NCBI RefSeq assembly: GCF_964213995.1
Contig: NC_135826.1
Coordinates: 31,868,001-31,932,000 of the forward strand
Source: Mustelus asterias
Lineage: Eukaryota
Reading direction: 5' to 3'
DNA length: 64,000 nt
In this document: in pieces, positions 4,282 to 60,877 of the stretch
Position numbering within the stretch: position 1 is the first letter of the stretch
Layout: each line of letters starts with the position of its first letter
The notes under the pieces: generated by a model
What the model was told of the DNA's origin: nothing
The model's database searches: none
The model's input: only the letters and a program-made list of their open reading frames with translations
Position numbers and translations under genes: made by a program

Positions 4282-4289
4282 TGTCCTCA

Positions 4290-4760
4290 GTCGGCGGAGG
4301 GTGGGGCGCTGCAGGTAGACGGAGCGGGACCCGTTACTGCCTCACTGAACCTTCCCATCCGTCAGAAAGCCGCAATCGTTCACTAATTAAAGATTAATTA
4401 AAGATGCCCATCACCGCCCAGTTCCCCAGCCGAGCGGCCCAGTGCCAGCCGGCCCCTCCCGCCCAAAGTAAGTCACCCTCACACAACCTCCTCCCATTAG
4501 GTATAAAGCTTCCACTGCTCCCTCCCCGCCCGACAACACTCCCACTCTGATTCCCTCTCCCTTCCCTTCCCCTCACTCCCCTCCCTTCACTCACCCTCCC
4601 GCAGCTTCGCCGCTGCTTCTTCAGCCGCCCCGAGCGCTCTCTCTCTGCGCCCCCCGCCACTGCGCATGAGCACCCCGCCGCTGCCGCGCTGCCCGTCGGG
4701 AGTTGTAGTTCCCCCCCCAAAAAAACCCTGAAGCTCAGCCAGGACAATATAGCCCCCAAC
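4290..4760 (-). promoter_or_regulatory. CpG island with probable promoter and first exon of an unidentified leftward gene
   Basis: ZNF143/SBS-type AACTACAACTCCCGACGGGCAGCGCG on minus (4685-4710), NRF1-like TGCGCATGAGCA (~4661), gtgagt donor on minus at 4594. Confidence 0.6.
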
Positions 4761-4940
4761 CCAACCCCAGGGGATGAGAAGGGAAAGGGGCATGTCTGCA
4801 CTGTGCAAGCTCAACAGATAACAATGCTGGGATTGTCCACTCTGCAACCTGCCCTTGACTTTTGCAAAGGGGGGGGGGCTATGGAATGCATGACCGGCGC
4901 AAGTGATGGCAGCAAAGATTTAATGGGTTGGATCAGCAGT

Positions 4941-29700: not shown

Positions 29701-32700
29701 GATGAACCAAAAGAGAGGTGCGAGGAGTTATTTGTTACAGACACAGTGGCACTTACTTCATTTACAATGTAAAGCATCCTCTACACACCCGAGTCTTGAA
29801 CATTCTAGAGTAGCTATGTGATGGGCAAAAATCCTAGGGATCTTTGCAATATGTTGCAAAATATACAATGGAGCAGTCACTTAACAAATCACCATCCCAC
29901 GTGTCTATATAGAGAAGTGTATTAAATTAAAGCTTTTGTCATGTTCTTTGAAAAAATATGTTGCTGAAATAGTACTGCAGTCACATGAAAACTGCCTGAG
30001 AAACAGTGAAAAAAATTATGCCACTACTTAGTAGGATTATTTCATTAAATTTTTACTCAACTTCAGGAATGCCTCATTGGCTTGGCACTCAACTCCTCCC
30101 TAATTCCTGGACTCATTCCTGATTGCTGAACTCATGCCAAGACTCGGCCCTCTCCCGTAATCCCGAACAAGCTTCCTAATTCTGTTTTCCTTTCTGCATC
30201 AACCACAGAACCCATCTCCTGTCTTGCCAGTCCCTCCCAAGATCCAGAGCTGCTTGGAAAGACAGCAGAGTTCCTCAGCTTTAACCTTCTGGCTTTAGGC
30301 CCCAACTTTCTTTAACCTAGGTCCTGGTTCCCATTTTTTAACTCCCTATCCCACATGTCCAGCTTGCTTCAGTGGCTCCTTAATGCTAGGAAGCTATCAC
30401 TCATGATCCAGTACAGCTGTGACTATCCATTCAGTCCTGTTTGTACACATTTGAATCTCAGACTTTGGTTTACAACTGCTATGATATTGCAATGGCCACA
30501 GTGTTGCACAATTTGATAGGACTGAGCAACAGTCACCAACAGCAGCATGGCTCAGAGATCAGCTCAATGTATGAATCTAATCACATGTATAAACAACTTC
30601 AAAAATGAAGGGTAATAATAGAACATAGAACAGTACAGCACAGAACAGGCCCTTCGGCCCACGATGTTGTGCCGAGCTTTGTCTGAAACCCAGATCAAAC
30701 TATTTCCTCCCTATCATCCCGAAGTACTCCATGTGCCTATCCAATAGTTTCTTAAATGTTCCTAAAGTTTCTGACTCCACTATCCCTGCAGGCAGTCCAT
30801 TCCACACCCCAACCACTCTGAGTAAAAAACCTACCTCGGACATCCTTCCTATATCTCCCACCATGAACCCTATAGTTATGCCCCCTAGTTATCGCTCCAT
30901 TCACCCGAGGAAATAGTCTTTGAACGTTCACTCTATCTATTCCCCTCATCATCTTATAAACCTCTATCAAGTCTCCTCTCAATCTCCTCCGCTCCAAAGA
31001 GAAAAGCCCAAGTTCCCTCAACCTTTCCTCATAAGACCTACCCTCCAAACCAGGCAGCATCCTGGTAAATCTCCTTTGCACTCTTTCCAGTGTCTCCACA
31101 TCCTTCTTGTAGTGAGGTGACCAGAACTGCCCACAATATTCCAAATGTGGTCTCACCAAGGTCCTGTACAGTTGCAGCATAACCCCACGGCTCTTAAACT
31201 CAAACCCCCTGTTAATGAATGCCAACACACTATAATGTACCAACCCAAACAGGGACATGATACTTGACCCTTTTCTTTTAAAATTTGAGATGTTACTTAG
31301 ACAATTGCAAAAGTAGCAAAATGTTTCAAAAGTAACAAAGTAATGAAATCAACTACCAAGGCTGTTTACCAGAAAGAGCCAACATCTGGAGCAGAAGTTT
31401 TTTGTTCTTTTTCTAAACATAAGCTGCTACTCTGATGCAGCATCAGAACCTCACAGATCACGGTTACTAATGTTTACCAATAACAAACAAAACCAGGAGA
31501 CACTATTCATCAAATGATTTCTCTAGAACATTGAACAGGTTCAATATCATGAGGCGGTGAAGAATGTGGAATAAAAATGATTGTTGTAATCCCTGATTAA
31601 CATAATCTAAACTGAAAAGATTGAATTGTTATTGGTAAAATAAAGTGAATTGACTTTTTCATCACTGACATAGGTCACTGAAATCTGCATTTAAGGATAA
31701 GCCATGCAATAACTGCATTGTTCATACAATAAGGGTGGGTAGAGAGACAGAGCACCAGAAACAGGAAGGGAAAGAGACTGTAAGCTAAAAGGTTCACCTG
31801 GCTAGTACAAGCACTCCAAAGGTACACACAAGTGCCAAGTCCAACACTTAACACATTTAGGGAAGACCAGTCCACTAGGTTTAAGTAAAAGTCATCCTGA
31901 AGTTCAGGTGCATCAAGAACTTTAAATGGGATCTTCGAGATTTTGCGAGTAGGCTTTCTTGGTGACCGCAACAACTTTTGGCTGTTCAAGACAGAAATGA
32001 CAAAATTAAATGCCAAACCAAATAGCAGCATGTACTTTTTTAAAATTTGACAATGGTTAATATGATCATGCACCATGCTATCACTGGTTGCATTCTGCTC
32101 AGTTTAGGAAAGTGGAACATTATTTGGCACTGCATTGTTATAATTTTCTTGTGACCATTCATAACTGAGTATTGTAAACATCCAAAGTGTCTCAGATTCA
32201 AGTTTAGATTATGCACGGGGAATATATTTAGATGCATTTTTGGCTGTTTCTTAGGTGAAAAAAAGATCCAAATATATGTGACTATGTCCCATGCATCAAG
32301 ACTGCTTGAAGATGTATGTTCAAGATGCTTGAAATACATCAGGCAGCAATCTGGCTCAGAAAATATGCAGGAGAGCCAAGCAGCTCTCTCAGCTGGCTGC
32401 TGACCCTCCTGCACATGTTAATGAGGTGTTTAAGGACCCATGTCAAACTCAGTAAGAAAATTGAGCAAAGTACACATATGCAGAGCATGGATATGCTCCA
32501 CTCAGGTTTTGTGTGTCGTTCGGCAACCTAAAACATGGTCCATAAAAAGATCATTGGAGATAACCAATACAAAAAAGTTTTTTTTCTTATTTGATTTATT
32601 AACATAGTGAAAAGTATTGTTTCTTGCGTGCTATACAGACAAAGCATACCGTTCATAGAGATGGAAATGAGAAAGTGCAGAATGCAGTGTTACAGTCATA

Positions 32701-35700
32701 GGTAGGGTGAAGAGAAAGATCAACTTAATGTAAGTTAAGTCCATTCAAAAGTCTGACAGCAGCAGGGAAGAAGCTGTTCTCGAGTCGGTTGGTACGTGAC
32801 CTCAGGCTTTTGTATCTTTTTCCCGAAGGAAGAAGGTGGAAGAGAGAATATCCGGGGTGCGTGGGGTCCTTAGTTATGCTGGCTGCTTTGTTGAGGCAGC
32901 GGGAAGTGTAGACAGAGTCAATGGATGGGAGGCTGGTTTGCGTGATGGATTGGGCTACATTCATGACCTTTTGTAGTTCCTTTAGGTCTTCAGCAGAGCA
33001 GGAACCATACCAAGCTGTGATACAACCAGAAAGAATGCTTTGTATGGTGCATCTGTAAAAGTTGGTGAGAGTCGTAATTGACATGCCAAATTTCCCTTAG
33101 TCTTCTGAGAAAGTAGAGATGTTGGTGGGCTTTCTTAACTATAGTGTCGGCATGGGGGTACCAGGACAGGTTGTTGGTGATCTGGACACCTAAAAACTTG
33201 AAGCTCTTGACCCTTTCTACTTTGTCCCCGTTGCTGTAGACAGGGGCATGTTCTCCTTTACGCTTTCTGAAGTCGATGAAGATCTCCTTCATTTTGTTAA
33301 CATTGAGGGAGAGATTATTGTTGCTGCACCAGTTCACCAGATTCTCTATCTCATTCCTGTACTCTGTCTCGTCATTGTTTGAGATCTGACCCACTACGGT
33401 GGTGTCGCCAGCAAACTTGTAAATCTTAACTTGTAAAATCTTGTAAATTTTAACCTAGCTCACTGCAGAACTCCACCAAACTACTCCAAGCTGACGCCAA
33501 CTTGTGCTCACACCAGCACCTCCCAACCTCCCGTATGGCTGCACTGCCCCCAGCAGTTCCTGGTGTTAAGTTTGGTCAAGTGCAGTTCAAAAAAGGTCAC
33601 AAAACTGTCCTGCAAATCAGACAAATCAATAACGAATTGTTGACTTAAGTCATATCTAAAGGACTGCAGTATTTGAAGTTCCAGATTGAAGGACAGCCAA
33701 CAAAAGAATACAATAAAGAATTGGTACAAACCACATGGACAGTTCAGAGTCAATATATATTCTGCAGTTTAATGTACCAATGTTTATATTTAGATATTAA
33801 CTGAACAGGGAGTTTAGTAATTCCAAAACAGATTAAAAAGTGTCAAGAAAAAACAATTTGGATAATGAATATCATGTCCCTAGCATTCGGATTCCAATAT
33901 ATTAGCTACCTATATTGACCTTCAGAAGATATAGTCATTTCCACAAAGGTTGGAAATTTAAAAAGAGGGAACTCTGCGTGAACTTTCAGTAGCCAGATTT
34001 CGAATTACATAGAGGTACACAATTTCAACATTCAAATTACGAGAAATGTATTAGTATTACACCATTAGAACTCCCAATACATAATGGCATGATGAGATAT
34101 AAGGTTACCTTTTATTGCTAACAGGAGATAAGGAGTAAGGTGAAATGTCGTTTCCATCATCAGGACTTGCACGCTTAGCGCTGAGTGAGTACTAAAAAAT
34201 AAAATCAATACAACATATTAACATTGGTTAAAGATGTTAACACCAATTTTCTTTTACAATTCCAAATGGGGAACACAACAGTGGTTTAATATAATCTTTG
34301 GTAAGATAAGAGAATAAAGCTCTTAAAGATCTGGATTTTCAATAAATATTGAGCTTTAATTTTCAGTGATGCTGTACGGCCAACATTAATAGAACGATCA
34401 GTCCATAGAATCATAAATGTAATTGTAGTGAACATCAATAGTATTTCCATTTACTTTACAGAAGTAGCAGGGAGCCAAGTGTCTAATGAAAACGAGGAAC
34501 CCAAAGTAATTATTAAAGTACCGGAGAAGAAATTAATAGGACCAAAAGTCAACAAGTCGCCTGGAGACTTATCGTTACCCTCAAGTAAAACTTGGAGGCA
34601 GGCAGGTAAATAGGTTAAACTGTTCCTTTCTCAGTGATGAGAAGTTCATACCTTGAATAAACTTTTCTTTTCGGGCGTTGAAGGCTGTAATCTTCGATCT
34701 TCAGTTTGAGGGTCTTGAACTTTTTCAATCCCTGCTCCAAGCAGCTCATTTTTAAGTAATGCAGAATAAGCAAGTCCATCTGTCACACACAAAATAGGGC
34801 AGACGAAAACAGAGAAATAGGATTTAAAAAGTAGGTACAAGTAGGACGCAGTTTTCATTTGCACTATTTGAACAGTTATAATACTGGTCACCTTTTATCC
34901 TGCTCCATTTTACAAAAAGGTTTAAAGAACTTTAAAATGAGAAAGGCAAGCAGTGTGGTTTACCAATGTTATAATTCGAGTTGCATGCAGTGCCTCCTAG
35001 TGTAGTAACATTTATTAGTTGCAACTGATTAATTGTCAGTTGACAGCACAACAACAGTGAAAGGCAGGCGTTTTCTGTTCTATTAAACCACATGACTTGA
35101 AATAACATGCACTCAACTGACTGAAATTGGGGAGTACAACACTTTGCTTAACTGTATTGTCAGATGTAGTAAGAAAGTTTCACCAGCCACTTTTCAAACA
35201 CAAAATTTTGGCATCAAGTTTACCCTTGATCTATGGCTAACTGAAATATGTGCACGACACAGTAAAAATTGACCAGTTTAATCCACTGATAATTTAAGAT
35301 CACAAAATCACAAGAGCCAGGCAAGACTTTACAGCTTTAAAAAGGTGGACCTTCTGTGGCTTTGCCTACAAAATGTCAATACACAGCACATTTCCCTCAA
35401 AGTACATTTCAACAATTGGCCTAGCGCCAATGATACCTACATCCTGTAAATAGAACATAGAACAGAACAGTACAGGAACAGGCTCTTCGGCCCACAATGT
35501 TGGGCTGAACATGATGCCAAATTCAACTAATCCCCTCTGCCTGCCTCAAGTGCATATTCCTCTATTCCTCACATATTCATGTCCTTATGTAAAAGCCCCT
35601 GAAACACACTATGGTATCTGCCTCCATCGCCACCCCTGGCAGCACATTCCAGACACCTACCACTTAGTAAAAAAAACTTGCCCCTCTCATCTCCTTTGAA

Positions 35701-38700
35701 CTATCCCCCTCTCACCTTAAGCGCATGCCCCCTAGTATTAGACATTTCAACTCTGGGAAAAAGATTCTGTCAACTCTATCTATGCTCCTCATAATTTTAT
35801 AGACTTTATCAGGTATCCCCTCAGCTTCCACTGCTCCAGAGAAAACAACCCCAGTTTGTCCAGCCTCTCCTTTTAGCTCATACACTCTAAACCAGGCAGC
35901 ACTCTGGTAAACCTCTTCTGCACTCTCTCCAAAATCTCCCCATCCTTCCTGTAATGTGGCGACCAGAATAAAACCTTTCAAATCAAGGTTTCACATACAG
36001 ATTTCATTTTCAAAGTTTCTTCATTTCTATATTGACCCAGGAGGATTTTTAAATTGAATACTGAGCACACTGTAGTTGTCATAACATTTATAATATCCCT
36101 AACTACACCCAATATTGAGTACACCTTTCAGTATTATACAAGAGGCCTGTTTTAGTGCCTTGCAACGTGTGTGAATTGTTAAAATAATTAGGATTTTGCA
36201 AAAGTAATGCCATTTGAATATAAATTTGGATTTTCACCTCACTATCCTACAGGGTATGATTTTAATTTTTTTTCATGGGGTGTGGGTGTTGTAGTCCATT
36301 CCTCATTGCCCTCGAGTAGGTGGTAATGAGCCACATTTATGAACCATAGCAGTCCATATGGCAACAGCTTGGTAAAACTGAGTGGGTCTGGAGTTACATG
36401 TAGGTCAGACCAGCTAAGGACAGCAGATTTCCTTCCCTAAAGGAGATTAGTGTATCAAGGGTAAACTTGTGTTTTTAATGACGATTGATGACAGTTTCAT
36501 GGTTATCATTACTAAAACTAGCTTCATTAGTTATTTGAATTAATTCAATGAATTTAAATTCCACCATGGCATTTGAACCCATGGCCCCAGACCTTTAGCC
36601 TAGACTCTGGATTACTAGCCCAATGACAACACTACACCACCATCTCAGTACAGTGAAGACATATAGGGTCAGAGGTTTACAGCATGGATACAAGCCTTTC
36701 GGCCCAACTTGTCCATGCTGTCTTTTTTTTAAAAACCCCTAAGCTAGTCCCAATTGCCCGCATTTGGCCCATATCCCTCGAGACCCATCTTACCCATGTG
36801 ACTGTCGAAATGCTTTTTAAAAGACAAAATTGTACCCGCCTCTACTACTACCTCTGGCAGCTTGTTCCAGATGCTCACCACCCTGTGTGTGAAGAAATTG
36901 CCCCACTGGACACTTTTGTATCTCTCCCCTCTCACCTTAAACCTATCCCCTCTAGTTTGAGGCTCCACTACCTTTGGGAAAAAATATTGACTATCTAACT
37001 GATCTATGCCCCTCATTATTTTATAGACCTCTATAAGATCACCCCTCAGCCTTCTATGCTTCAGAGAAAAAAATCCCAGTCTATCCAGCCTCTCCTTATA
37101 ACTCAAACCATCAAGTCCGGGTAGCATCCTAGTAAATCTCTTCTGCACTCTTTCTAGTTTAATAATATTCTTTCTATAATAGGGTGACCAGAACTGTACA
37201 CAGTGTGGCCTTACCAATGTCTTGTACAACTTCAACAATACATCCCAACTCCTGTATTCAATATTCTGACCAACGAAACTAAGCATGCTGAATGCCTTCT
37301 TCACCACTCTGTCCACCTATGACTCCACTTTCAAGGAGCAATGAACATGTACCCCTAGATCTCTTTGTTCTGTAACCCTCCCCAATACCCGACCATTAAC
37401 TGAGTAAGTCCTGCCGTGGTTCAATCTACCAAAATGCATCACCTTGCATTTATCTAAATTAAATGCCATTCATCAACCCACTAGCCCAATTGATCAAGAT
37501 CCCGTTGCAATCAGATAGAAGTTTCTTCACTGTCCACTATGCCACCAATCTTGGTGTCATCTGCAAACTTACTAACCATGCCCCCTATATTCTCATCCAA
37601 ATCATTAATATAAATGACAAATAACAGTAGACCCAGCACTGATCCCTGAGGCACACCGCTGGTCACAGACCTCCAGTTTGAAAGACAACCGTCTACAACC
37701 ACCCTCTGGCTTCTGTCATCAAACCAATTTTGTATCCATTTAGATACCTCACCCGAGATCCCGTGAGATGTAACCTTATGCAACCACCTACCATGCAATA
37801 CCTTGTCAAAGGCCTTGCTAAAGTCCATGTAGACAACATCAACTGCACTGCCCTCATCTACCTTCTTGGTTACCCCTTCAAAAAACTCAATCAAATTTGT
37901 CAGAAACGATTTTCCACTCACAAAGCCATGCTGACTGTCCCTAATCAGTCATCGCATCTCTAAATGCCTGTAGATCCTGTCTCTCAAAATATCTTCTAAC
38001 AACTTACCCACCACAGATGTGAGGCTCACTGGCCTGTAGTTCCCAGACTTTTCCCAGCAGCCCTTTTTGAACAAAGGCACAACATTTGCCACCCTCCAAT
38101 CTTCAGGCACCTCACTCGTGACTATCGATGATTCAAATATCTCTGCTAGGGGACCCGCAATTTCCTCCCTAGCCTCCCACAATGTCCTGGGATACACTTC
38201 ATCAGGTCCCGGGGATTTATCTACCTTGATGCGCTTTACGGCTTCCAGCATCTCCTTCTCTGTAATATGTACACTCCTCAAGACATCACTATTTATTTCC
38301 CCAAGTTCCCTAACATCCATGTTTTTCTCAACAGTAAATACTGATGAGAAATATTCATTTAGGATCTCATCCATCTCTTGTGGATTCGCACATAGATGAC
38401 CTTGTTGATCCTTAAGAGACCCTACTCTCTCCTTGTTACTCTTTTGCCCTTTATGTATTTGTAGAAGCTCTTTGGATTCTCCTTTGCCTTATCTGCCAAA
38501 ACAATCTTGTGTCCCCTTTTTGCCCTTCTGATTTCTCTCTTAACTCTACTCCTACATCCCCTATACTCTTCAAGGGATTCACTTGATCCCAGCTGCCTAT
38601 GCATATCATAGCTTCTACACAATAAAATAGAAAATGATTTTTAAAAATTGCATTAGTGAATGTGGTTTTCTTTTCCCCTCCAAATAAATTCAACACAGCA

Positions 38701-41700
38701 CATTTCCATCAGAGTGCATTAGTACTGCAGTTGGTATGAAGATTAGAAGCTCCATATAGTGGTAGAAGACGGTATGACTGGCCATATCTCAAGACTCATA
38801 CGTGAACCTCACATTCTGTGGTCCAACGCAGCAGGGTGGTTTTGTACCCAAAGCCGACAAACTGCAGGGAGTGTCATTAAAGTCCACTTTAACATATCAA
38901 CTAGAGAATAGTAACAGAATGATAGGCAGCAGGTCAATAGAAAAGCATTTATATTGGGCACACCTTATTAACAGTAAAAACAGTATCAAAAAAAACAATG
39001 CCCATCTTATAACTAAAGACAATAACCAATCTGGGTCAGCAGGTTCTAGATACATGTATCTGTGAACAAGAACATGTGAATATCCAGGTTCTTGCCTGTA
39101 CCAGGATTTGGTTGCCAGGAGTATTATTCTCACATCTGGTATCTTCATAAAGACTCAGACTAATGCATGCCGATTGGCTAATGATCTAGGTTTTTGGATC
39201 TTTTCTAATCATTCCTATCCTCTCATAAAAACACAAGAAATAAGAGAAGTAGGCTATATGACTTGAGTCAAGTCCACCATTCAATAAAATTATGGTGATC
39301 TTCCAACTTAATACCATCTTCCTACATAATCCCCATATCTCTTGATTTCCTTAATATCCAACAATCTGGAACAGTTATTAGCCAGGGCATTGAAAAATAC
39401 ACCGGCTCTTCGCATGGGATCCTGTACAGCCATCTGAGGACAGAGATGTTGTGATTAAATGCTCCAAAATGGAAGGTCAATGGTGCAGCATTATTTCTGT
39501 TGTGTTGGAATGTCAGCCAGCCTAAATTATGAACCTGGAACAATTTGGTTTGGGGGCAATAGTTCTTATATCTCTCAGCTGAGGTTGTTAGCTAACCCAC
39601 TCAACTACTACTGTTAACTCATATCTGTTTAATTTTTTTTTTCTTTTTCAAATATGCAACCATTTCTTTTTTAAAGTCCATTATGAATTCTGCCTCCTCC
39701 CAATATTTCTCAACAACCCGTGATATACATTGTTTGATAACTACACCCTCTTGGGGATGATGAGCCTGTTTTATTTAAATCCCAAGTTTAAGATGTTACA
39801 ATTTAATATCTTATGCATCTCGCATTTCAAACATTGAAAAATAACAAAGATTGAATGTTTTGCAAGAGTGGAGAGCACAAAGACGCAGTGAAAAACTTCT
39901 AATACAATATGTAGAAATTAAAGACACATTTGCCTTTATTTTTATGATTAAAAAGGATTGTAATCCACTATTTGGTAAATAGTGAGACTCTTCCCTCCCA
40001 AGGACCTGGGTGTATTTTGTTTGTATTTAGTACCATTTACTGAAGTTGGTGAAGGAACAATGGAGGTAAACTTGGGTCATCTATGTTAATGTGAACTGTT
40101 AAGATTTTGGTCTCTCTAACTACCCAGAAAAGTGAATGATGATCTCCTCGAAGTGCAAGGTGAAGGGCGGAGAATGAAGAGGGAAGATGACGAATAGACA
40201 GAGGCAATACTACTCCACTCCCATTCCTATAATTACCTTTAAAAAATTATTTGCCCTACTTTCCAAACCCAACTGTGAAATAAATTAATTTCCACACTAT
40301 TCAATTTTTTAAACCTTTGTTCCAATTTTCCTTACAGCTGAACATAACTGGAAAAACTACCTTTTCTGAATGTGCAATAATTGTAAACTTAAGTTTACTG
40401 GACTTGCATAAGACATAATTAAAATAACTAGAACAGTATGTACTGAACCTTTGCCATTGTCAGAGGTTGCATCTTTTGCTTTTCTGTTTTGACTGGGGGA
40501 TTTTTCATTTTCCTAGAAGAGACAAAAACCAATATACATGTTTAATATATGTATTCAATGGTCAATCAACGCAGGTCATTTATGCAGCACCATCTTAGAA
40601 ATGGTCAACAAATCTATTTATGAATGGTGATATTTGCAGGTTGTGTTTTCTCTGCTACAGGCCAATAATCTCAGTTTCCTGGCTGCTGGTCTAATCATAA
40701 AAAAAATCTTGAAAAGTAATAATTGCTCTTTAAAACAAAAAATTTGGTTCATCAATTAAGACAATGATCATCAATTATTTCAAAGAATTTGAAAAAATCT
40801 GCTAAGTTAATTTAAGAAATAAAAATCACCATAACAAGATTCAAGTCACATTTTATATTAGATGGTTTAATAGATGTCAAACAGTTTATTTTGCTAATAT
40901 CCAAGTTGCATTTTGGCTCTGAAAAAAAACTAGAAATTTCAGCTTCGGATTTTGAGAATATTTTTCAAGAGGACAGAACCATATAGCACTTCTCAAAGAA
41001 AAAAAAACACCCACAATTCAAGGATTAATCAAATATTAGATCTTATGGCACCAACTTACATTTATATAGCACCTTAAATGCAACAAAATAGCCCAAGGCA
41101 CTTCATGTGACACTAGACTGCATAGAGATATTGGGGCCAATAGCTTAGTCAGAAAGTAGTCTTCAATAGGATTAAAGAGTGGAAGATAAGTTTATGGAGA
41201 GAATTAAAGAACTTATGGCCTTGGCAGAAGTGATTAAAGGTCAGAATTGGAGGTGCTCTGCTTGGTACAGCAAAAGTATCTTAGCTCATGTGTAGGTTAT
41301 CAGAATGCAAAATATACAGATCTCAGACTTGGCATAATTTTATACCCTAATAAGATAGGATCTACTTGCAACAATCTCCGAGTTTTTAAAGATATGAGAC
41401 ATTTGCAACTTAGTAACTGCTAATGTCATCTCATCTCATCAGATGACTATTTAATTGGTTTATTAAACAACGGTATTAATATATAAACATTGCCTCTAGC
41501 GTGTATTTCATCAGCCACATTATCATCATAGAAATCATAGAAACCCTACAGTGCAGAAGGAGGCCATTCGGCCCATCGAGTCTGCACCGACCACAATCCC
41601 ACCCAGGCCCTACCCCCACATATTTTACCCACTAATCCCTCTAACCTATGCATCCCAGGACTCTAAGGGGCAATTTTTTTTTTTTAACCTGGCCAATCAA

Positions 41701-44700
41701 CCTAACCTGCACATCTTTGGACTGTGGGAGGAAACCGGAGCACCCGGAGGAAACCCACGCAGTCACGAGGAGAATGTGCAAACTCCACACAGACAGTGAC
41801 CCGAGCCGGGAATTGAACCTGGGACCCTGGAGCTGTGAAGCAGCAGTGCTAACCACTGTGCTACCGTGCCGCCCATTATGCTACAAATATAAAACTATCA
41901 TATGGAAATAACAAGTCACTTAATACCCCAAACTTACAAGCATTTTTAAACTGCACAAAAATTAAACCTTGATTAAGCCAAGGACCATTCCTTTATACTT
42001 AATTATATTTTGCAGCCTGAACAAAAGATACATTGTACATTATATAGTGTACACGACTTCTGTCCTTACTATTTGCAATTACCTCAGATGATCTGCTGCG
42101 TTACATAAAGTCTCATTGAAACAAAAAACAAAAGGCAATTGTTGTAGCAGAAATTCCACTATGAAAAGTTTCTGGAATACTTGTTAAAAAATGTGGGCTA
42201 ATAATCTCAGCAACACAAGAGCTATGAGGCCCATCTACAGTTTGGGACACCTACTTGTTCAGACAATCGTGCACACAAACTACACTGCACATGACCTTTT
42301 ACCTTATTCATAAATATTTAAGGATCAACATAATGTGACCACAGCAAAAAACACTTCTAAGCACAAGCAAATTTCCACGCTAAGAATCCATCTTTTAAAA
42401 CAGGCTGATCGCTGAACATTTCAACTATGTCCTTGTTCATTTCCCCAATCTGTCCACTATCACCCAGGGCCAATTTTACCAAAACTTCGCACCCAAAATC
42501 GCGGTAAAGTTGGGCGTCAGGCCTATACCGCGACCTGCACCCGATTCAGAGCAGATCACGGCTTTACCAACACCCGATTCGGGTACGGCTCTGGCCCGCG
42601 CCCGAATCGGGCAGCCCAACAATTTAAATGCATTAGCATGCATTTAAATCGACTGAATGAGCCGCGCACTCAACTCTACCACCAAATCCCACTTTATCAT
42701 CTTCTGGTCCGTTCTGGACCCGTGCTGTAAGCGACCTGCAGAATAAAAGTCCGAAGTGGATTTCTATTCTGCAGGGGAACCTCCGAAGCCCATCCTCCTC
42801 GACCATCCTTCGCGGACCCCCCCGCTAACCACCCCCGCAGATAATGAATGGTACTGGTCGATCTTCCTGGTGTTATCAGCACTGTAACATCAGGAATGGC
42901 TGCCGACACCAAGGATATAATTTTTAGCATAAGCAAGGCTTACATGCAGAACCCTAATGCCATTATCCTTTGTATCCAAGATGGTTCAGTAGATGCTGAA
43001 CGCAGTATTGTAAATGACTGGGTGAGCCAGATGGACCCACAACGCAGAAGGACCATCTTTGTGTTGACCAAAGTGGATCTAGCTGAGAAAAACCTAGCCA
43101 GTCCAAGTCGGATTCAACAAATTGTGGACGGCAAGTTGTTTCCAATAAAGGCTTTGGGTTACTTTGCAGTTGTTACCGGTAGAGGCAACACCAATGAAGG
43201 TATTGATTCCATAAAAGATTATGAAGGAGAGTTCTTTCAGAGTTCAAAATTGTTGAAGACAGGGATGCTGAAAGGACATAAAGTGGCAACTAAGAACTTG
43301 AGCCTAGCAGTTTCAGACTGTTTCTGGAAGATGGTGCGCGAGTCTGTGGAACAACAGGCTGATGCATTTAAAGCTACTCGCTTCAACCTTGAAACTGAAT
43401 GGAAGAACAACTATCCTCGGCTGAGGGAACTCGACAGGAATGAACTATACGAGAAGGCAAAGAATGAAATTCTGGATGAAGTGATCAGCTTAAGTCAGGT
43501 TACTCCAAAACACTGGGAAGAGATTCTACAAAGGAAACTGTGGGAAAGAGTCTCTACACATGTGACAGAGAATATTTACCTTCCTGCTGCCCAGTCTGTG
43601 AATTCAGGCACATTCAATACCACAGTGGACATCAAGCTCAAGCAGTGGACTGACAAACAGTTGCCTCACAAAGCAGTACAGGGTTGCTTGGGGAACCTTG
43701 GAGGATGAATTTGCTCGATTTATGTCAGAGCACAAAGGGAAGGACCATGATTATATCTTTGACAAACTAAAACATGCTGTTAAAGATGAAAGTATAAAAT
43801 GTCACAGATGGGATGAGCAGGCTGAAGACAGTCTGAGAGTCATCCAGCACAATGCTTTAGAAGATCGTTCCATATCTGACAAACAGCAGTGGGATGCAGC
43901 TATCCATTTCCTGGAAGAAACCTTGCAAACCCGTCTTCGAGATACTGAATCTGTAATTCGTGATATGGTGGGGCCAGATTGGCAAGAAAGGTGGTTCTAC
44001 TGGAAATCACGGTCTCCAGAACAGCATATTCGAAATGAAACCAAAACCGAACTGAAACGGCTGCTAAAAATCAATGAGGAACATACAGCTTATCTTGCTA
44101 ACGATGAAGTTACAACAGTTCGTAAAAACCTGGAGGCCAAAAATGTAGATGTGGACACCATTCTGATTAAAGGTACTTGGCACCAAGTTTACCAAAAACA
44201 CTTCCTAAAGAAATCGTTGAACCATTGTAATCTTTGCAGAAGAGGTTTCCACTATTACCAAAGGCATTTTGTAGATTCTGAGCTTGAATGCAATAACGTT
44301 ATCCTGTTCTGGCGCATTCAGCGAACGCTAACTATTACAGCAAACACACTCTGCCAACAGCTAACAAATACTGAAGTGAGACGCCTCGAAAAGAATGTGA
44401 AAGTAGTGGAGGATTTTGCTGAAGACAATGCTAAAAAAATTCAACTGTTGACAGGAAGGTGAGTTCAACTAGCAGAGGACCTCAAAAGGGTTCGTGAAAT
44501 TCAACCGAAGTTAGAAGTATTCATTGAAGCTCTTCATCAAGAAAAATAACACTGTCTCTCGTCACACACTGCCATACATGCCTCCTTCCTCCCCCCCTCT
44601 CTGCTGTTTTTTTCTTTGACGCCCGGGCGCGCTGCTTCTGATTTCTTTTTGAACTGCGCATGCGCAGTTCAGAGCTCCGATCAATCCGGCAGCGCTAAGC

Positions 44701-47700
44701 CCCGCCCACTGCACGGGTTGGACTGGAGCCGGCAAAAAGCGTATGGGGGCACTGGAAAGAGGATTCCAGGCTCGGGTCTGTATTACAACCAGATTTGGCA
44801 CTTAGACTCAAAATGGTAAAATCAGGCCCTCAGTGTCCATTTCTCCTCTGGATCCTTTCCCACAAAGGATTGAAGTTTTAACTTCCTGACTGCGCCAAAT
44901 AGAGAAGAATGCTAAGAAAATGATAGCCATTCATTGGCACACCTGCTGCAAGCATTGGTTTAGCATTGCTCTTCCCCTAGGCAAGGGTAGAAAAATTGAG
45001 ATTTGCAGTATGAACAACAATGTCTCTTCTCCTCCTCCCACACAACTGAAGAGTTTGATGGCATGGGCTCCCACACAAATGGAACTATTTGAAGGGCTGA
45101 TGGAATGGGGAGAGGGATCATGCTACATGAATGCACTTTCTTCCAGTAAATGTACATTTCATGTAGTGAAACCCATCTCTTTCTACATCCCCTCACCAGG
45201 ACATATTTTGTTCATGCGACAGGGGTCCCCCACATAGTTGCTTCTCTCCAGGAGGGGCTGACGCTATTTAAGTGCAATCAAGCACTTAACTGGCCGGTGT
45301 TAGACCTCCCACACAATCAAGGCTCCAATAGGGCAGAAATCTCACCCCCAAGAGTTGTTGACCAGAGGTCAGCAGTCTCCATTGCCAGCGGTGCCACCAG
45401 GAGCAGTGCCTGCTGCTTTTAACTCTCTGAAGCCTTCACCAGTGACCATTGCTGGGTTCCTAGAGACAGATGAATGGGGCAGGATGGGGGTTATGCACAC
45501 GTGAGATTAAATGCAAGGGCAGATTGTGCCCAGTGCCAGGTTTCTCACTCAGTCACCAAATGCCTGTAAACATTATGAGTCATTACAAAGTTATAGGCAA
45601 ACGTGATAAGAGTTTGCCATGCAAATTCCATCCACTACCTGGGAAATGAAATAAGGTGGTAAATAACATACAAATTCTGGCAATTCACCCCAAATTTAGT
45701 TAGTCTACCTGCATTCAAAAGAAAGGTCCAGGCACTGCAGTACATGCTACTTCGCTAAATGATTATTTTTAATCCAAATAACCTACAGAAACCTGAAATT
45801 CCATTTGAATCCATATTACATATCAGTGAGTGGCAAGTTAAGGATTAGATGATGCTTTGTTACTTCACAAAATATTGTTGGCAGTGTAGTCATGGCAAGT
45901 AGAATATAACTAACTTAATTTGTCACCCCAAACATTATATGGGCTATGCTGAAGAATATGGGTCCTCTTTAAAGCAAACTTTTAAAGCAAGCATTTAAGG
46001 TCATTTTAATTTAATTCTGAATGTCTGAATAGTTTCCCCCCAAAATGCCTACATCACTAAATGTTTTCAACAACAACATACATTAATTCTGTGAAAGTTT
46101 ATACTCCAGTTTGCTGCTGCTCTTGAAGGAATAAACCGGTCTCCACTTTTGCTTGGCGATGACACTGGTGAATTTGAAGGCGTTAATGTTCTTCTAACTT
46201 CTGATATCTGAACAAAATCCAGAAATGGAGAATGGTGTTAAATTAACATTAAAAATACAAAATCTGTAATAAAGTTAGAGCACAGCAGTATTAACCTATT
46301 CCATAGGTTCCATAACCTATTCCATAGGTCTGATCTTGCAGCATTAGTTTCTATTAGGATTCTTGAGTTTCAGTTTAGAAATAAAAACAACTGCAATACT
46401 AGACATCTGAAGTAAAAGAGTGCAAGAGAGATTAGTTTGATACATTTTCCTTGTACTATGAACTTCAGCTACTGCATTTTATAAATGTTTGAGAGAGCTT
46501 TTGGTGAGCAAAGAGTTTGTTGGGTTGGGTTCTAATGGAAGATGACAGCTTACATCCATTACGTTAGAAACTGAGCTCCCAGTCATTCGAAGCTTTTGAG
46601 AAAATGGGCCCCGCATTTAAATCACAAAGTAATACAGCGCGGAAAAGCTGCTTCGGCCCATCAAGTGTGCACCCACAGTAATTCCCTCTAAGATTGTACT
46701 CATCCGATTTTCCAGCACTTGGCCCATATCCTTGAATATGATGATGCTTCAAGTGCTCATCCAAATATTATAAGGTTTCCAGCCTCTACTACCTCCCAGG
46801 CAATGCATTCCAGATTCCCACCACCCTTTGAAGTGAAAAATAATTTTCTCAAAACCCTTCTGAATCTCCTGCCCTTTATGCTAAAACCATGTCCTCTCAC
46901 GATTGACACTCCCCAACCATTATGGAAGTAGGATCATTGATGAAGCAGCTGAAGATGGTTGGGTCTATGACATTACCTGGAGCAACTCCTGCATTTATGT
47001 CCTGGAACTGAGACGATTGACCTCCAACAATGACAACCATCTTCCAACCAGCAGAGAGTTCCACCTTTCCCAATACAGTTTTGCTAGGGCTCCTTGATGC
47101 CACACTCGGTCAAATGTTGCCTTGATGTCAAGGGCAGTTCCTCTCACCTCACCCTTGTAGTTTTTTATTCATTCATTCATTGGACATGGGCATTGCTGGC
47201 TGGCCAGCATTTATTGCCTATCCCTAGTTGCCTTTTAGAAGGTGGTGGTGAGCTGCCTTCTTGAATCGCTGCAGTTCAGTTGTTTTGTACATGTTTGAAC
47301 AAAGGTTGTACTGAGGTTAGAAGCTGAGTGACTCTAGTGGAACCTAAACTGAGCTTCAGTGGCCAAGTTCTGCTAAGCATGTGCCGCTTGATAGCACAGT
47401 TGTTGACCCCTTCCGTCACTTTACTGTTCGCGAGAAGACTGATCAGGTGGTAATTGGTCAAGTTGGATTTATCCTGCTTTGTGTACACAGAACATACCTA
47501 GCAAATTTCCACATTGCCAAGTAAATGCCAGTGTTATAGCTGTACTTGAACAGCTTGCCTAGGGGCACAGCAAGTTCTGGAGCACAAGTACTATTGCTGG
47601 AATATTGTCAGGGCCCACAGCGTTGCAGTTTCCAGTATCTTTGGCTGTTTCTTGGTATATGTGGCCTGAATCAAATTGACCACAAGACTGGCACCTGTGC

Positions 47701-50700: not shown

Positions 50701-53700
50701 GTGACTCCAGTTTTGCACTAACAGGTTGACACATCTTTAAGGGATTCATGAAGAAGGCCCACTTCAGGGCAACTAGAGATGGACAATGAATGTCAACTTT
50801 ACCAGTGATGCTCACAGCCCACAAGTAACCTTTTTTCTACAAAATCACGAGATAGAGTAAAATTACGAGAAATAGGAAGGGTCGAGAGCTTCAAGTTTTT
50901 AGGTGTCCAGATCACCAACAATCTGCCCTGGTCCCCCCATGCCAACAGTATAGTTAAGAAAGCCCATCAACGTCTCTACTTTCTCAGAAGACGAAGGAAA
51001 TTTGGCATGTCAGCTATGACCCTCTCCAACTTTTACAGATACAACCAGAAAGAATGCTTTCAATGGTATATCACAGCTTGCTATGGCTCCTGCTCTGCCC
51101 AAGACTGCAAGAAACTACAAAAGATCATGAATGTAGCCCAGTCCATCACACAAGCCAGGCTCCCATCCATTGACACTGTCTACACTTCCCACTGTCTCGC
51201 AAAAGCAGCCAGCATAATTAAGGACCCCATGCACCCTGGACATTCTCTCTTCCACATTCTTTTGTCCGGAAAAAGATACAAAAGTCTGAGGTCACGTACC
51301 AACCGACTCGAGGACAGATTCTTCCCTGCTGCCATCAGACTTTTGAATGGACCTACCTCACATTAAGTTGACCTGTCTCTACACCCTAGCTATGACTGTA
51401 ACACTACATTCTGCACTCTCTCTTCTCCTCTAGAATGGTATGCTTCATCTGTATAACATGCAAGAAACAATACTTTTCACTGTATACTAATACATGTGAC
51501 AATAAGTCAAATCAAAACTTCAATTTTTTGACTTTGGGAAACGTGCTTCCTAACTACACTCCTGAATGGCCTAGCTCTAATTTTAAGATTGTGCTTCCTT
51601 GTTCCATTGCCCCAGTATTTCCATCCAACCTTGATTTTAAAATTCTTATCCTTTGCTTTCAAATTCCTCCATAGCGTTGCATCTCCCTCTAACTTTTTTC
51701 AGTGCTGCAACCCACTAAAATCGCTGTGCTCCTCTAATCCTGGGCTCATGAACTTTGATTTCAGCGGCCATCCCTTTAGCTGCCGGGGCCAATAAAGTCT
51801 AGAATCTCCTCCTTAAGCCTCTGCATCTCCAGTTCTCTCTCCGCTTTTAAGACACTGCTTAAAATCTACCTCTTCAACCAAGTTTTTGGTTTTCTGTCCA
51901 AATAACCCCAAGTGAGGCTCCGAGTCAATTTTGTAAAGTGTCCTTGGACATTGGTAAGGCCACACTTGGAATACTGTGTGCAATTCTAGTCACCCTATTA
52001 TAGAAAGGATATTATTAAACTAGAAAGAGTGCAGAAAAGATTTATTAGGATGCTACTGGGACTTGATGGATTGAGTTATAAGGAGAGGCTGAATAGACTG
52101 GGACTTTTTTCTCTGGAGCGTAGGAGGCCTTATAGAGGTCTATAAAATAATGAGGGGCATGTAGATAGTCAATAACTTTTCCCAAAGGTAGGGGAGTCTA
52201 AAACTAGAGGGTATAGGTTTAAGGTGAGAGGGGAGAGATACAAAAGTGTCCAGAGGGGCATTTTTTTTCACACAGAGGGTGGTGAGTGTCTGGAACAAGC
52301 TGCCAGAGGTCGTAGTAGAGGCAGGTACAATTTTATCTTTTAAAAATGATTTAGATAGTTACATGGGTACGATGGGTAAAGAGGGATATGGGCCAAATGT
52401 GGGCAATTGGGATTAGCTTAGGGGCTTTAAAAAAAAAGGGTGACATGGACAAGTTGGGCCGAATGGCCTGTTTCCATGCTGTAAACCTCTATGACTCTAT
52501 CTATGACTCTATGTTACTATGTTAGGGACAGTAAGAGTTTTACCAACGCTAGGTTGGAGTCCAACAGGTTTATTTGGTAGCAAATGCCATTAGCTACCAA
52601 ATAAACCTGTCGGACTTTAACCTGGTGTTGTTAAAACTCTAACTGTGTTTACCCCAGTCCAACGTCGGCATCTCCACACTATGTTAAAGACACATGGCCA
52701 ATGGTGGAGTCATGAAAATTGGATGAGCAAGAGGCCAGAATTGTGGAATTGGATCAACAAGTGGCTAGAATTGGAGAGCAGAGATCTTGCAGGGTCTGTA
52801 CGGCTATATCTTGTTGGGGATAGGGAGGAATGAGGCTGTGGTGGGAGTTGTGGATATTTTAAAATGAAGCTGCTGCCAGATAGGGAACTCCGTGTAGGTC
52901 GGTGAGCAGTGACAGCAGCAGCTTGCATTTATATACTGCCTTTTAAGACTTATCTAGATAGCCACATGAACGGAGTGGGAATGGAGGGATACAAAAGAAT
53001 GGTCTAGTTTGGACCAGGGAGCGGCGCGGGCTTGGAGGGCCGAAGGGCCTGTTCCTGTGCTGTATTGTTCTTTTTGATACAGTAAAATATTCCAAAGTGC
53101 TTCACACAAGTGTTAGCAAACAAAATATTTTTTCACAGAATTGATGGGTGTAATGTCCTAACTATGTTAGGGGTTGTGGGTCTTAAACAAAAAGACCCAA
53201 AAAGTCCGAAGATGTGCGGGTTAGGTTGATTGGCCATGCTAAAAATTGCCCCTTAGTGTCCTGAGATGCGTAGGTTAGAGGGATGAGTGGGTAAAATATG
53301 TAGGGATATGGGGTAGGGCCTGGGTGGGATTGTGGTCGGTGCAGACTCGATGGGCCGAATGGCCTCTTTCTGCGCTGTAAGGTTCTATGATTCTATAACT
53401 AAAATAAGGGCAATGCCAAGTGCGGTTGACAGTTTTGAGTTTGTGTCAATACACATCTAAAAAATAATTTCCACCTATGTAATATTGATCATCAATTCAA
53501 CGCGTTCATCAAGATTTTAGCAAAGTGCAACGGCCGACGTGAAATTATCATACGATGTTAACTTGAAATGTGAGAAACACTCAATAGTATGAATTTTGTC
53601 TTGCAAAGCTCAGGTTGTATTTGGAGTGAGCATTTTGATTGAGAACAAAAAAAGCTGAGTGCATGATGAAGTTAGACACCAGGATTCCACATTTCCTGAT

Positions 53701-58723: not shown

Positions 58724-58950
58724 TCTACCTGCAATGTCGGACTGTCCAACGGAGAAACCTCGACCAAAACAAAGGGGGCTTCTGGATGAAGAATCGCCCT
58801 CACATACTAGCCCGTGCCACGGCTTCTCTCAGCTCAAGTATCCAGACCTTTTCTTCCCCCCCCCCCACTCACCCTAACCCAGCCCTGGGGCTCCGCGACT
58901 CCTCGAGCTGTTCAGCCCACAGACAACATGGCAGCCGCACTTCCGGCGCC
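58724..58950 (-). other. FZR1: Probable non-coding first exon of FZR1
   Basis: Lies in the CpG island next to the promoter motifs and ends in a gtaag donor at 58723; TSS not determinable from sequence. Confidence 0.65.
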
Positions 58951-59055
58951 GGAGCGACCGTTACCCATTGTGACGTCACTGAGATTCAAACCGCCGCCGG
59001 AAGTGCGGCCGTTGCCATGGCAACGCGGGGCGGGGGGGTCACCATGGTTACCTCA
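58920..59055. promoter_or_regulatory. CpG-island bidirectional promoter
   Basis: YY1-like CAACATGGC (58924), ETS/GABP CCGGAAGTG on both strands (58938-58946, 58997-59005), CRE TGACGTCA (58971-58978), RFX X-box GTTGCCATGGCAAC (59011-59024), GC box (59027-59035), second X-box-like GTCACCATGGTTAC (59038-59051). Confidence 0.85.
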
Positions 59056-59293
59056 TCACCCTAAACGAAGCGGGTTTAAGATCGAATAAACTTTCCAACG
59101 CCCCGGTCATATATATATATATATTTTTTTTTTGTTCCTAAATCTAAAGAGGCAGGTTTGGTGCCGGGAGTCCGGTTCCAGTTGCTGGTGGTGGGTGTGT
59201 GTTTCGGCCCCAGGCCCCAAGCGGCGGCGGGGGGGGTGAAGCTGAGGACCCCCCCCCCACCACCCACCACCACCACTTCCCAGGTCAGTCAAC

Positions 59294-59455
59294 ATGGCGG
59301 AGGAGACGGTGCTGCCAATGATGTTCCTACTCCTGTTTCTCTTCATGAAACGCCGCGCCGACTACGAGAGTGCGGGCGTGGAGAGGAGGAACGACGCGCA
59401 GAGGAGGCTGAGATTGAGGCAGTATTTCCAGCAGCGCCAGAGGAAAATGATCTTG
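59294..59455 (+). CDS. Coding exon 1 of Harbinger-transposase-derived gene
   Basis: aacATGG Kozak context; MAEETVLPMMFLLLFLFMKRRAD...RQRKMIL (54 codons); phase-0 donor gtaaat at 59456 matches the phase-0 acceptor at 63238. Confidence 0.75.
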
Positions 59456-60877
59456 GTAAATGGGAGAGAGGGAAAGGGAAATTAGAGAAAACAACAACAA
59501 CAACAAACGTGCGCGGGTCACACAAAAGGCAAAAAACTTTCACTCGTCTTTGGCCCCCTAACTCCTGAAAGCAGTGGGTCTCCAATGAACAGGAGAAGAA
59601 CCACTCAAAGCTTGTTCTTGCTCCCTTATCTTGTTCACCCATAGCTGGAGTTTGTAATCCCATTCAGAACCACAATATAAAAGCGAGTGACTTGGCGGGT
59701 GGACGGACGCGTTTTCCTTTTTGTTTTGGATCCAGTTACTTAAGAAAGGGGAGTCTCAAATTAGACCATCGATACGATTTAAATAGCGTCAGGTATGAAA
59801 CACATGGCGACCTATTTTTGAAATACTCCACAATCGTGACTGATATTGAGATGGGCTTTATTAGCTGATCCTAATCAGGTTAGGATTCTTTTTAAGCAGC
59901 GGGGTGGTTAGAACATTGGAGTAGCTGACCAGAAAGTGATGGAAGCAAGCACTGCAACAGCTCCCGAATAGGAAAAAGATAAATATTGGATGAGATGTAA
60001 GTAAAAGATGCGAAGGAAAGATAGGGGAATGGCACCATGTATGTGTTTCTTTCAGAAAACTGGAATCGGTGTAATGGACCACATAACCTCCTTCTGTACT
60101 ATAAAATTCAAACCTTCTTTCACAAATATCTGCTCTCCCCCCCCCCCCACCCAGATGTAAAATGTATTGTTTAAATTATTCAGAAACTGGATGGACTGTG
60201 GAGGGAGAATAAGTACATAGAGCAACTAGGCTACTCGATTAAGATTAGATCAAGTTTCATTTTCTATGTGCTGATTGGAAGGGTCCTGTTAAATTAAAGT
60301 TGGCATATAGGAGCGTGCTTCTTACATTTATTTCAGTTATTTTTGTTGTTCTGTGAGCTATTGTCAGGCTAGAATGTAGAGAACTTAGTGGTGCAGTCAG
60401 CTGTAATCTGGAAGTAACTGGTTCTGACATTGGGTGTTTTTTTCATCTCAAAGTTTTAGATGTAAAGTTTCTTCTGAATTTTAGCAGACTACATATGAAT
60501 ACAAAAGCTGAAGAATAACTTAGTTTTCCAACCCCTATTACCAGACAAAAAGTGATTTGATACAGCTATTACCATTTAGGTGTCACAGTGTAGCTTTAAA
60601 TTAACAACTGAACTGTCAATCTTTCTGTTTATGATTTTCAAAAGTTGAAAAACTAATTATGCATTAAGAAATTATCGAACTTTAAAAGCTAAGCAAAATT
60701 GCAGAGGCTTTATTAAACCAGTTTGTATGCCAATCCAGTTTGATTTTTCCCTCTAACCATATTTGAGTGTTGATTGAAACCTCCATATTTACATTTGGGA
60801 TGGAGTTTGTGCCTGTAAGAAATTAACTTTCATACCAAAGTTTAATCCCCTTAATTGTAAATTTCTGGGTGGAAACA

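Follow-up and report, generated by a model that had tools for sequence, protein, structure and literature searches.

A processed OPA1 pseudogene between arms that look like a PIF/Harbinger-type element in Mustelus asterias

Nested retrocopies and related systems

Retrocopies nested in DNA transposons are an already known kind of arrangement, represented by bat Helitrons and by ARF6-MER20. Four nested-retrogene cases, with empty exemplars, are described from Myotis bats (PMC4224331). As at the locus reported here, a spliced mRNA was reverse-transcribed into a DNA transposon and is truncated at its 5′ end. The Myotis cases differ in that they were later amplified (118 copies), have poly(A) and L1-type target-site duplications (TSDs), and sit in a rolling-circle carrier, whereas the shark carrier looks like a cut-and-paste element with terminal inverted repeats (TIRs), its insert has no tail, and it is known from a single copy. 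A second comparison comes from animal Pack-TIRs, ARF6-MER20 among them: host gene sequence lies between TIR-element arms, and most are single copy, with only 4 (1.4%) being multicopy (PMC8277862). In the study that defines them, however, cargo is duplicated at the DNA level, fillers are DNA-derived and short, and the methods discard intronless copies of multi-exon genes as retroduplicates; the word 'Harbinger' is absent from its main text. Here, host sequence likewise lies between what look like the TIR arms of one element, but this cargo is spliced.

The carrier resembles the NuwaII group of the PHIS (PIF/Harbinger) superfamily, whose target is C|TNA|G and whose 13–46-bp TIRs begin with GG (PMC4482050). 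It differs in being without a transposase or Myb gene, and hence without phylogenetic placement, and cartilaginous fish are absent from the 12 species named in that paper. GGG starts are also typical of NuwaI, whose CWG target is not seen here. With respect to the cargo, tailless retropseudogenes also are without poly(A), and their 3′ end falls on an internal A-rich stretch overlapping the target, but they are described as L1-dependent, are scored with 8–35-nt TSDs and are reported from therians and, outside mammals, only from anole (PMC5322556), whereas here a 4-bp repeat is found in a CR1-rich shark. Finally, double-strand-break (DSB) repair mediated by reverse-transcription (RT) products inserts internal fragments of spliced mRNA, without poly(A) and with short junction homology, but was described at CRISPR breaks in mouse and usually leaves no duplication (PMC4516963).

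Against this background, we assign a probability of roughly 0.55 to a history of two nested events, in which LINE-type reverse transcription placed a copy of spliced OPA1 mRNA into an intact ~655-bp MITE.

A decayed, spliced OPA1 fragment in an FZR1-like intron

The analysis covered a 64-kb window, the whole stretch of DNA under study. The host gene is FZR1/CDH1-like and lies on the minus strand; we take it to be FZR1 from characteristic sequence words and a Pfam match of a downstream exon to WD40_CDC20-Fz. Its intron at 40513..46081 was delimited by exon translations and GT/AG ends. Antisense to this gene, at 42846..44549 on the plus strand, tblastn, Pfam (Dynamin_N and OPA1_C domains) and codon comparison identify a 1.7-kb spliced OPA1 fragment with a CpG-rich arm on either side. 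The fragment, or cargo, starts at the second base of the Arg codon preceding MVLVDLPG and ends with the native OPA1 stop codon at 44547-44549. In tblastn, residues 408-685 of Heptranchias OPA1 match 42848-43681 (95.7% amino-acid identity) and residues 682-974 match 43671-44546 (90.4%), so that the cargo is colinear and gap-free with 567 shark OPA1 residues and contains no intron gaps. The original prediction of an intronless OPA1 fragment reaching from the G3 motif to the native stop is thus borne out. If shark OPA1 intron positions are taken as equal to human ones, the cargo runs across the positions of introns 12-27, beginning in the middle of exon 12, ~37 nt in, and ending in exon 28 (human numbering from PMC8270428). 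Because it is continuous across the exon junctions of a multi-exon parent, we call it a processed pseudogene, and the earlier claim that the copy passed through RNA is supported.

The cargo carries a frameshift near 43682, a codon loss near 44403 and a premature stop at 44460, and it has 21 changes in 491 codon columns that are invariant across 12 sharks and rays (pN 1.8%), counts that exclude Callorhinchus (one extra residue), a mis-joined whale shark model, unnamed proteins, redundant isoforms, four codons at the frameshift and the deleted codon. It differs from the OPA1 of Cetorhinus, Heptranchias, Carcharodon and Pristiophorus at 34-36 of 562 positions and from that of carpet sharks and rays at 42-52 of 562. 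It contains neither the targeting sequence nor the membrane anchor, and of the GTPase it lacks the part before DLPG. The cargo is therefore a decayed, dead pseudogene whose coding capacity is lost; a functional retrogene is ruled out by the frameshift, the stop, the replacement of invariant residues and the lack of the N-terminal half. This decay did not figure in the original prediction.

Two further features lie at the left junction. An ATG directly after it opens a 286-codon frame. In the arm just before it, an acceptor-like stretch (CTAAC...CAG) ends at 42840; splicing between arm and OPA1 was nevertheless rejected as the source of the chimera, because arm sequence upstream of this stretch is still present and the first cargo base lies ~37 nt into exon 12.

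The arms, their inverted repeats and the target site

The left arm (42467..42844) and the right arm (44550..44829), both given on the plus strand, end in inverted repeats at 42467..42481 (plus) and 44814..44829 (minus), which start with GG and match in 14 of 16 columns, with one gap and one mismatch. Immediately outside lie CCA at 42464..42466, preceded by C, and TCA at 44830..44832, followed by G, a pair that reads as a 3-bp TNA duplication in C|TNA|G whose left copy has one mismatch. These GC-rich arms, repeats and CCA/TCA flanks are as originally described, and the proposed PIF/Harbinger-type assignment also holds up, in that the TIRs and target fit a single non-autonomous PHIS element. Judged from sequence features, the arms resemble opposite ends of one such element with a NuwaII-type target, a family placement (Harbinger/NuwaII-like) that we infer.

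Taken alone, the TIR is not beyond chance: in a search reaching up to 500 bp from either end of the cargo, its score was equalled in 118 of 1000 shuffles and at 246 of 547 other window positions, a set that probably includes SINE pairs. The joint pattern of a GG start, a match of at least 14/16 and a C|TNA...TNA|G site, defined post hoc after the data had been seen, occurred in 0 of 1000 shuffles and at 0 of the 547 other positions. CpG change-points, placed without use of the TIRs, lie at 42488 on the left (range 42460-42500) and at 44773 on the right (range 44730-44808), coinciding with the element ends or falling about 20-55 bp inside them.

The left arm is 54% GC, has a CpG o/e of 1.07 (28 observed versus 26.1 expected) and is rich in hairpins (fold z -4.5), with four of 8-12 bp, as well as three CCCGA(T/A)TC subterminal repeats. 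The right arm is CpG-rich over 44621-44829 and contains a perfect 22-bp palindrome at 44650-44671. By contrast, 44550-44620 is pyrimidine-rich and CpG-poor (1 CpG in 71 nt; CpG o/e 0.34 versus 0.79 over the remainder of this arm); it may belong either to the element or to the OPA1 3′ UTR. The arms make up 1.0% of the window, in which blastn and a motif scan found no second copy of either arm or of the TIR motif; two of the seven CpG-rich islands in the window are the arms, and none of the others has the TIR motif. An 89-aa open frame in the right arm, searched as a possible protein trace across an empty junction, had 0 matches among 1.84 billion proteins, the whole window had none in Rfam, and the element contains no tandem repeats. 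A bacterial promoter/terminator scan, which is not relevant to a shark, returned 0. The TIR motifs have no text match in the supplements of PMC4482050, whose logos are pictures.

The odd composition of 44550-44620 raises the alternative that the retrocopy includes 3′ UTR, from 44550 to about 44620, with its ordinary end lost or unrecognisable, or that the arms come from different elements. A TIR that alone does not exceed chance would fit this alternative too, as would the lack, within the window, of another copy of either arm that could corroborate a family. Set against it are the joint TIR and target-site pattern (0/1000 shuffles, post hoc), the CpG edges near the TIRs and the absence of any A-tract after the stop: neither an A-run of at least 6 nor AATAAA/ATTAAA occurs within 44541-44900, in line with the original observation that poly(A) is missing. 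We consider this alternative very unlikely.

Junctions and routes of entry

At the right junction, the cargo 3′ end (44539..44549, plus strand), set by protein homology only, has 9 A in 11 nt and is the only one of 1694 cargo 11-mers with at least 9 A, which makes it a candidate internal priming site. ATAA forms the final 4 nt of the cargo (44546-44549) and also stands at 42841..42844 on the plus strand, 1 nt ahead of the cargo; these copies are a candidate 4-bp TSD around the cDNA, and the single plus-strand base between the left copy and the cargo (42845..42845) may be a 5′ extra nucleotide. By chance, ATAA would turn up in 6 of the 371 windows of 8 nt along the left arm, and no longer repeat occurs at the cargo junctions. 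The original statement that the cDNA has no TSD is thus open to doubt. A repeat of only 4 bp is short, however: six repeats of at least 4 nt are shared between the 14 nt that precede 42848 and the stretch 44540-44700; the 5-mer at 42836/44663 among them is disfavoured as the true TSD, as it would place the CpG-rich, palindromic 44621-44662 in an mRNA. If 44550-44620 is OPA1 3′ UTR, the arguments from the A-rich end and from ATAA both fall.

LINE-type insertion into the MITE could have proceeded as follows. A ~655-bp non-autonomous PHIS element would have inserted by cut-and-paste at C|TCA|G in the FZR1 intron, an event of which the TIRs, the site and the CpG-rich body are directly visible. A LINE-type reverse transcriptase, most likely from the CR1/L2 elements that predominate in shark genomes, would then have used spliced OPA1 mRNA as its template and placed the copy in the element's interior: a nick at the ATAA site could give a T-rich end that pairs with the A-rich stretch closing the OPA1 coding sequence and primes synthesis there, leaving the 3′ UTR and poly(A) uncopied. 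Synthesis would halt within exon 12, 1.7 kb on, and joining at the 5′ side would add one base and leave the 4-bp duplication. Splicing, truncation at both ends, the A-rich 3′ end and ATAA at both junctions are the direct traces of this second event; we infer the enzyme, the priming and the absence of element DNA loss. A single copy is compatible with either order of element insertion and cDNA arrival; the cDNA insertion most likely occurred at this FZR1 site.

Several observations, most of them in other systems, fit this route. Internal priming at A-rich regions gives tailless retrocopies (PMC5322556) and is our proposed cause of the missing poly(A). L2/CR1 TSDs peak at 3-5 bp, and 5′ extra nucleotides occur in about half of zebrafish ZfL2-2 copies (PMC4245944). 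Among three neighbouring near-full-length young SINE copies examined, two have adjacent TSDs of 5-6 bp, which fits as well, and one has no adjacent TSD, which does not. CR1 constitutes 21.8% of the whale shark genome, in which PIF-Harbinger is also present (PMC8455134), and 14,081 retrocopies have been counted in cartilaginous fishes (bioRxiv 10.64898/2026.06.26.734816). With so many retrocopies, and arms that occupy 1.0% of the window, some chance nesting would be expected. A tailless CR1/L2 product is an extrapolation, because tailless retrocopies are described as L1-dependent. As a rule, CR1/L2 elements are strict in requiring their own 3′ tails. The reading that originally led, in which gap repair captured the cDNA and the composite then moved as a unit, is not supported as the first choice here: its case from missing poly(A) and TSD is weakened because both have a simpler reading in internal priming and a 4-bp candidate TSD. 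Retro-insertion into a MITE, originally offered as the simpler alternative, fits better, given the A-rich priming tract and a candidate TSD of CR1/L2 size.

The same junctions could arise by RT-product-mediated DSB repair, the form of capture originally proposed, in which a break in the element, possibly located at a hairpin or left by excision, was filled through microhomology with reverse-transcribed OPA1, replacing some internal element sequence. Doubly truncated, poly(A)-less inserts of spliced mRNA with short microhomology are found at mouse zygote breaks, where one retrotransposon insert had a 4-bp TSD (PMC4516963), and the hairpin-rich left arm (z -4.5) and A-rich 3′ microhomology are compatible with such patching. 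ATAA at both junctions is not predicted by it, however, the nearest hairpin (42735-42775) is about 65 bp from the insertion point, and the summed arms would make a plausible intact MITE length. We regard patching as a possible but doubtful origin.

If instead the element had copied an older OPA1 processed pseudogene elsewhere by template switching, the RNA step would lie earlier, not at the present junction. Single-copy animal Pack-TIRs arise mainly by gap filling, and ARF6-MER20 may be an instance of a captured retrogene (PMC8277862); moreover, the left arm shows no CpG depletion (28 versus 26.1 expected), whereas the cargo has lost 4 of 16 Arg CpGs. Yet this age difference is not significant: CpG decay is 2/16 in arm hairpins versus 4/16 in cargo Arg codons (P=0.65). 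Arms and cargo look equally old, and there is accordingly no sign that the element resided long before the cDNA arrived. Captured fillers are also usually short (median 224 bp versus 1.7 kb here; PMC8277862), priming accounts better for a 3′ end that falls on the most A-rich tract, and tblastn found no further OPA1 pieces in the 64-kb window. We give such DNA-level capture little credence.

Movement as a unit would require that the cDNA entered an active Harbinger/NuwaII-type copy elsewhere and that cut-and-paste transposition later brought the 2.36-kb composite to the FZR1 intron, while sister copies came to lie at other loci. Consistent with mobility, both TIRs are intact, arms and cargo have similar CpG decay, and a 2.4-kb composite falls within PHIS element sizes. 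No second copy of the OPA1-bearing chimera lies in the 64-kb window, and no truncated shark OPA1 protein is among the matches listed (120 of 121 near-length and 120 of 3192 longer), although annotated proteins are weak evidence on sister copies because pseudogenes yield none. Literature searches, mostly at record level, found retrogene spread by DNA transposons for Helitrons and no Harbinger case. We judge this history improbable.

As a single nested pseudogene, the locus is of little importance. If an empty site confirms the ATAA duplication, it would offer a clean junction at which a CR1/L2-type enzyme primed internally on an mRNA to give a tailless retrocopy, which would bear on the origin of many retrocopies in CR1-dominated shark genomes. 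If sister copies exist, retrogene amplification by DNA transposons would extend from Helitrons to cut-and-paste elements, a class filtered out by design in the animal Pack-TIR survey (PMC8277862). A mobile composite would be a cut-and-paste TIR transposon spreading spliced host mRNA in a vertebrate, and further copies might reveal a family that collects tailless retrocopies.

A processed OPA1 copy antisense to an FZR1/CDH1-like gene

The OPA1 fragment (42846-44549, plus strand) has gone through RNA, as originally predicted. With Heptranchias OPA1 as the tblastn query, abutting matches to residues 408-685 (95.7%) and 682-974 (90.4%) ran without an intron gap to the native stop at 44547-44549. 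The Met that opens MVLVDLPG corresponds to human M394 (exon 12), and the cargo ends in what is exon 28 in human (PMC8270428, in excerpt). If shark introns are placed as in human, the ungapped cargo would span 16 intron positions. Homology starts at the second base of the Arg codon preceding MVLVDLPG, off any exon boundary in human numbering, and GPGLQ, which lies upstream in 11/11 displayed cartilaginous-fish OPA1 proteins, is missing. Among the matches listed, the nearest proteins are shark OPA1. The cargo is a dead copy: its reading frame shifts near 43682, lacks one codon near 44403 and is interrupted by a stop at 44460. CpG-type decay affects 4/16 CGN Arg codons, and 21 substitutions fall in 491 columns that do not vary among 12 sharks and rays (~1.8% of non-synonymous sites). 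The whale shark OPA1 model P0009 combines an E1-E2 ATPase domain with an aberrant C-terminal part and is likely a mis-joined gene model.

The element bearing this cargo lies in a 5,569-bp intron (40513-46081) of a minus-strand FZR1/CDH1-like gene (exons from about 53954 to 14720), to which the cargo is antisense. One host exon matches WD40_CDC20-Fz (Pfam); the name FZR1 is presumed, partly on this match and partly on sequence words. CpG islands at 58761-59560 and 4041-4780 may serve the host gene and a neighbouring gene, respectively, as promoters. Directly 5' of the cargo junction, CTAAC, a pyrimidine run and CAG (42825-42840) resemble a splice acceptor, and an ATG 7 nt beyond this CAG starts a 286-codon OPA1 frame; plus-strand transcription or exonisation would be a candidate event. 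Past the OPA1 stop, an 89-codon open frame (44550-44816) continues in the OPA1 frame; a protein database search found no relatives, and the frame is probably due to chance.

The carrier element

Both arms (42467-42844 and 44550-44829) are GC-rich (54% left, 52-56% right), and CpG observed/expected is 1.07 in the left arm and 0.79 at 44621-44829, versus 0.33 for the window. The predicted terminal inverted repeats (TIRs; 42467-42481 and 44814-44829) agree at 14/16 columns, but their local score alone is no better than chance, being reached by 118/1000 shuffles and at 246/547 other positions. The pair is nevertheless credible, because CpG change-points computed without the TIRs (42488 and 44773) lie at the element ends or slightly inside them, and the flanks (C-CCA left, TCA-G right; target copies 42464-42466 and 44830-44832) fit a C|TNA|G target. 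The joint TIR and target pattern, set post hoc from the data already seen, occurred in 0/1000 shuffles and at 0/547 other positions. C|TNA|G is the defining target of NuwaII, a group within the PHIS (PIF/Harbinger) superfamily that has TIRs of 13-46 bp with a GG start (PMC4482050, in part). Moreover, the three bases outside the target duplication on either side are mutually complementary, as the superfamily's extended target preference predicts (PMC2836001, in part). In the portions available, PIF-Harbinger is reported from whale shark (PMC8455134) and not detected in elephant shark (PMC9179366).

Four hairpins and three subterminal repeats lie in the left arm. Within the 64-kb window neither the arms nor the TIRs recur, and the element has no transposase, so the PIF/Harbinger assignment of the original prediction, although matched by GG-start TIRs and C|TNA|G-type flanks, is made from ends and target only. 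With that limit, a non-autonomous NuwaII-like PHIS element is a credible reading of the arms. GC-box-like motifs and TGCGCATGCGCA, which we take to be NRF1-like, lie on the minus strand at 44650-44720, directed inward, and suggest a remnant promoter of the parent transposon.

Junctions and the route of insertion

We favor, at a probability of roughly 0.55, a model in which OPA1 mRNA was reverse-transcribed by a LINE-type enzyme into an intact element of ~655 bp; synthesis would have been primed where the coding sequence ends in an A-rich tract, and a 4-bp duplication would have resulted. As first noted, no poly(A) follows the cargo, which terminates on an 11-mer with 9 A, the sole such 11-mer among 1694 in the fragment. 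For tailless retropseudogenes, PMC5322556 (in excerpt) proposes internal priming at A-rich tracts that are complementary to the target, and such priming would explain why the cargo ends exactly at the stop codon, which is otherwise odd. ATAA stands at 42841-42844, one base 5' of the cargo, and again as its last four bases; it occurs in 6/371 8-nt windows of the left arm. The earlier case for capture, argued from missing poly(A) and a missing target-site duplication (TSD), thus keeps its first premise but meets an A-rich end and a candidate TSD that leaves the second doubtful. As excerpted, PMC4245944 describes 3-5-bp duplications for L2 and CR1 clade LINEs and extra 5' bases in about half of zebrafish ZfL2-2 copies. 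Duplications of 5-6 bp are also seen locally, at two of the three young SINE copies described below. Against LINE-type insertion, short repeats are common (six of at least 4 nt between the zones compared around the junctions), the 3' end was set by protein homology only, with 71 CpG-poor bases after the stop that could be OPA1 3' UTR, and tailless copies are described for L1 with TSDs longer than the 4 bp here (PMC5322556, in part).

Alternatively, a break in the element could have been patched with OPA1 cDNA, with loss of element sequence; cDNA inserts at repaired breaks are likewise doubly truncated and tailless (PMC4516963, in part), and we consider this route possible but distinctly less probable. 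That the 3' junction is misplaced, or that the arms are unrelated, is improbable, and DNA-level capture of an older OPA1 retrocopy is just as improbable.

Mobility, precedents and neighboring repeats

Transposition of element and cargo as a unit is unlikely. The 64-kb window contains no second OPA1-bearing copy, and no truncated shark OPA1 protein appears among the best 120 of 121 or the best 120 of 3192 matches, a weak test for sister copies because pseudogenes yield no proteins. Multicopy cases account for only 1.4% of the animal Pack-TIRs in PMC8277862 (in part). However, both element ends are intact and CpG decay does not differ between arm hairpins (2/16) and cargo (4/16; P=0.65); the cDNA may therefore have entered before the family became inactive.

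The locus is best described as a Harbinger-type MITE with a retrocopy nested inside it. Some nesting is expected by chance, as retrocopies are common (14,081 across the cartilaginous fish genomes examined; bioRxiv 10.64898/2026.06.26.734816, in part) and the arms make up 1% of the window. Like animal Pack-TIRs, the locus places host gene sequence in a TIR element, but its cargo is spliced and falls outside the DNA-level duplications that define the class in PMC8277862, a survey that, in its accessible text, dropped intronless cargo as retroduplication and recorded a MER20 TIR element containing a retrogene as ambiguous. In bat Helitrons, mRNAs were retroposed in and then amplified (four cases, 118 copies; PMC4224331, in part). 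Retrocopies nested in DNA transposons are thus already known; the portions of the literature searched contained no case of a Harbinger element spreading a retrocopy, so a mobilised OPA1 composite would be new, if proven.

A SINE-like family with a 9-bp tandem tail is represented at 41520-41875, 23538-23879 and 17713-18054 and by 11 weaker matches, one copy lying about 590 bp from the OPA1-bearing element in the same intron. Adjacent 5-6-bp duplications flank two of the three near-full-length young copies, drawn from 14 blast matches in the window, and none is present at the third. An open reverse transcriptase frame of 587 codons (60778-62541; RVT_1 in Pfam, E 3e-32), presumably CR1-like, marks a young LINE copy; broken further LINE copies lie at about 30750-31350, 36740-38490, 32725-33450 and 50810-51370.
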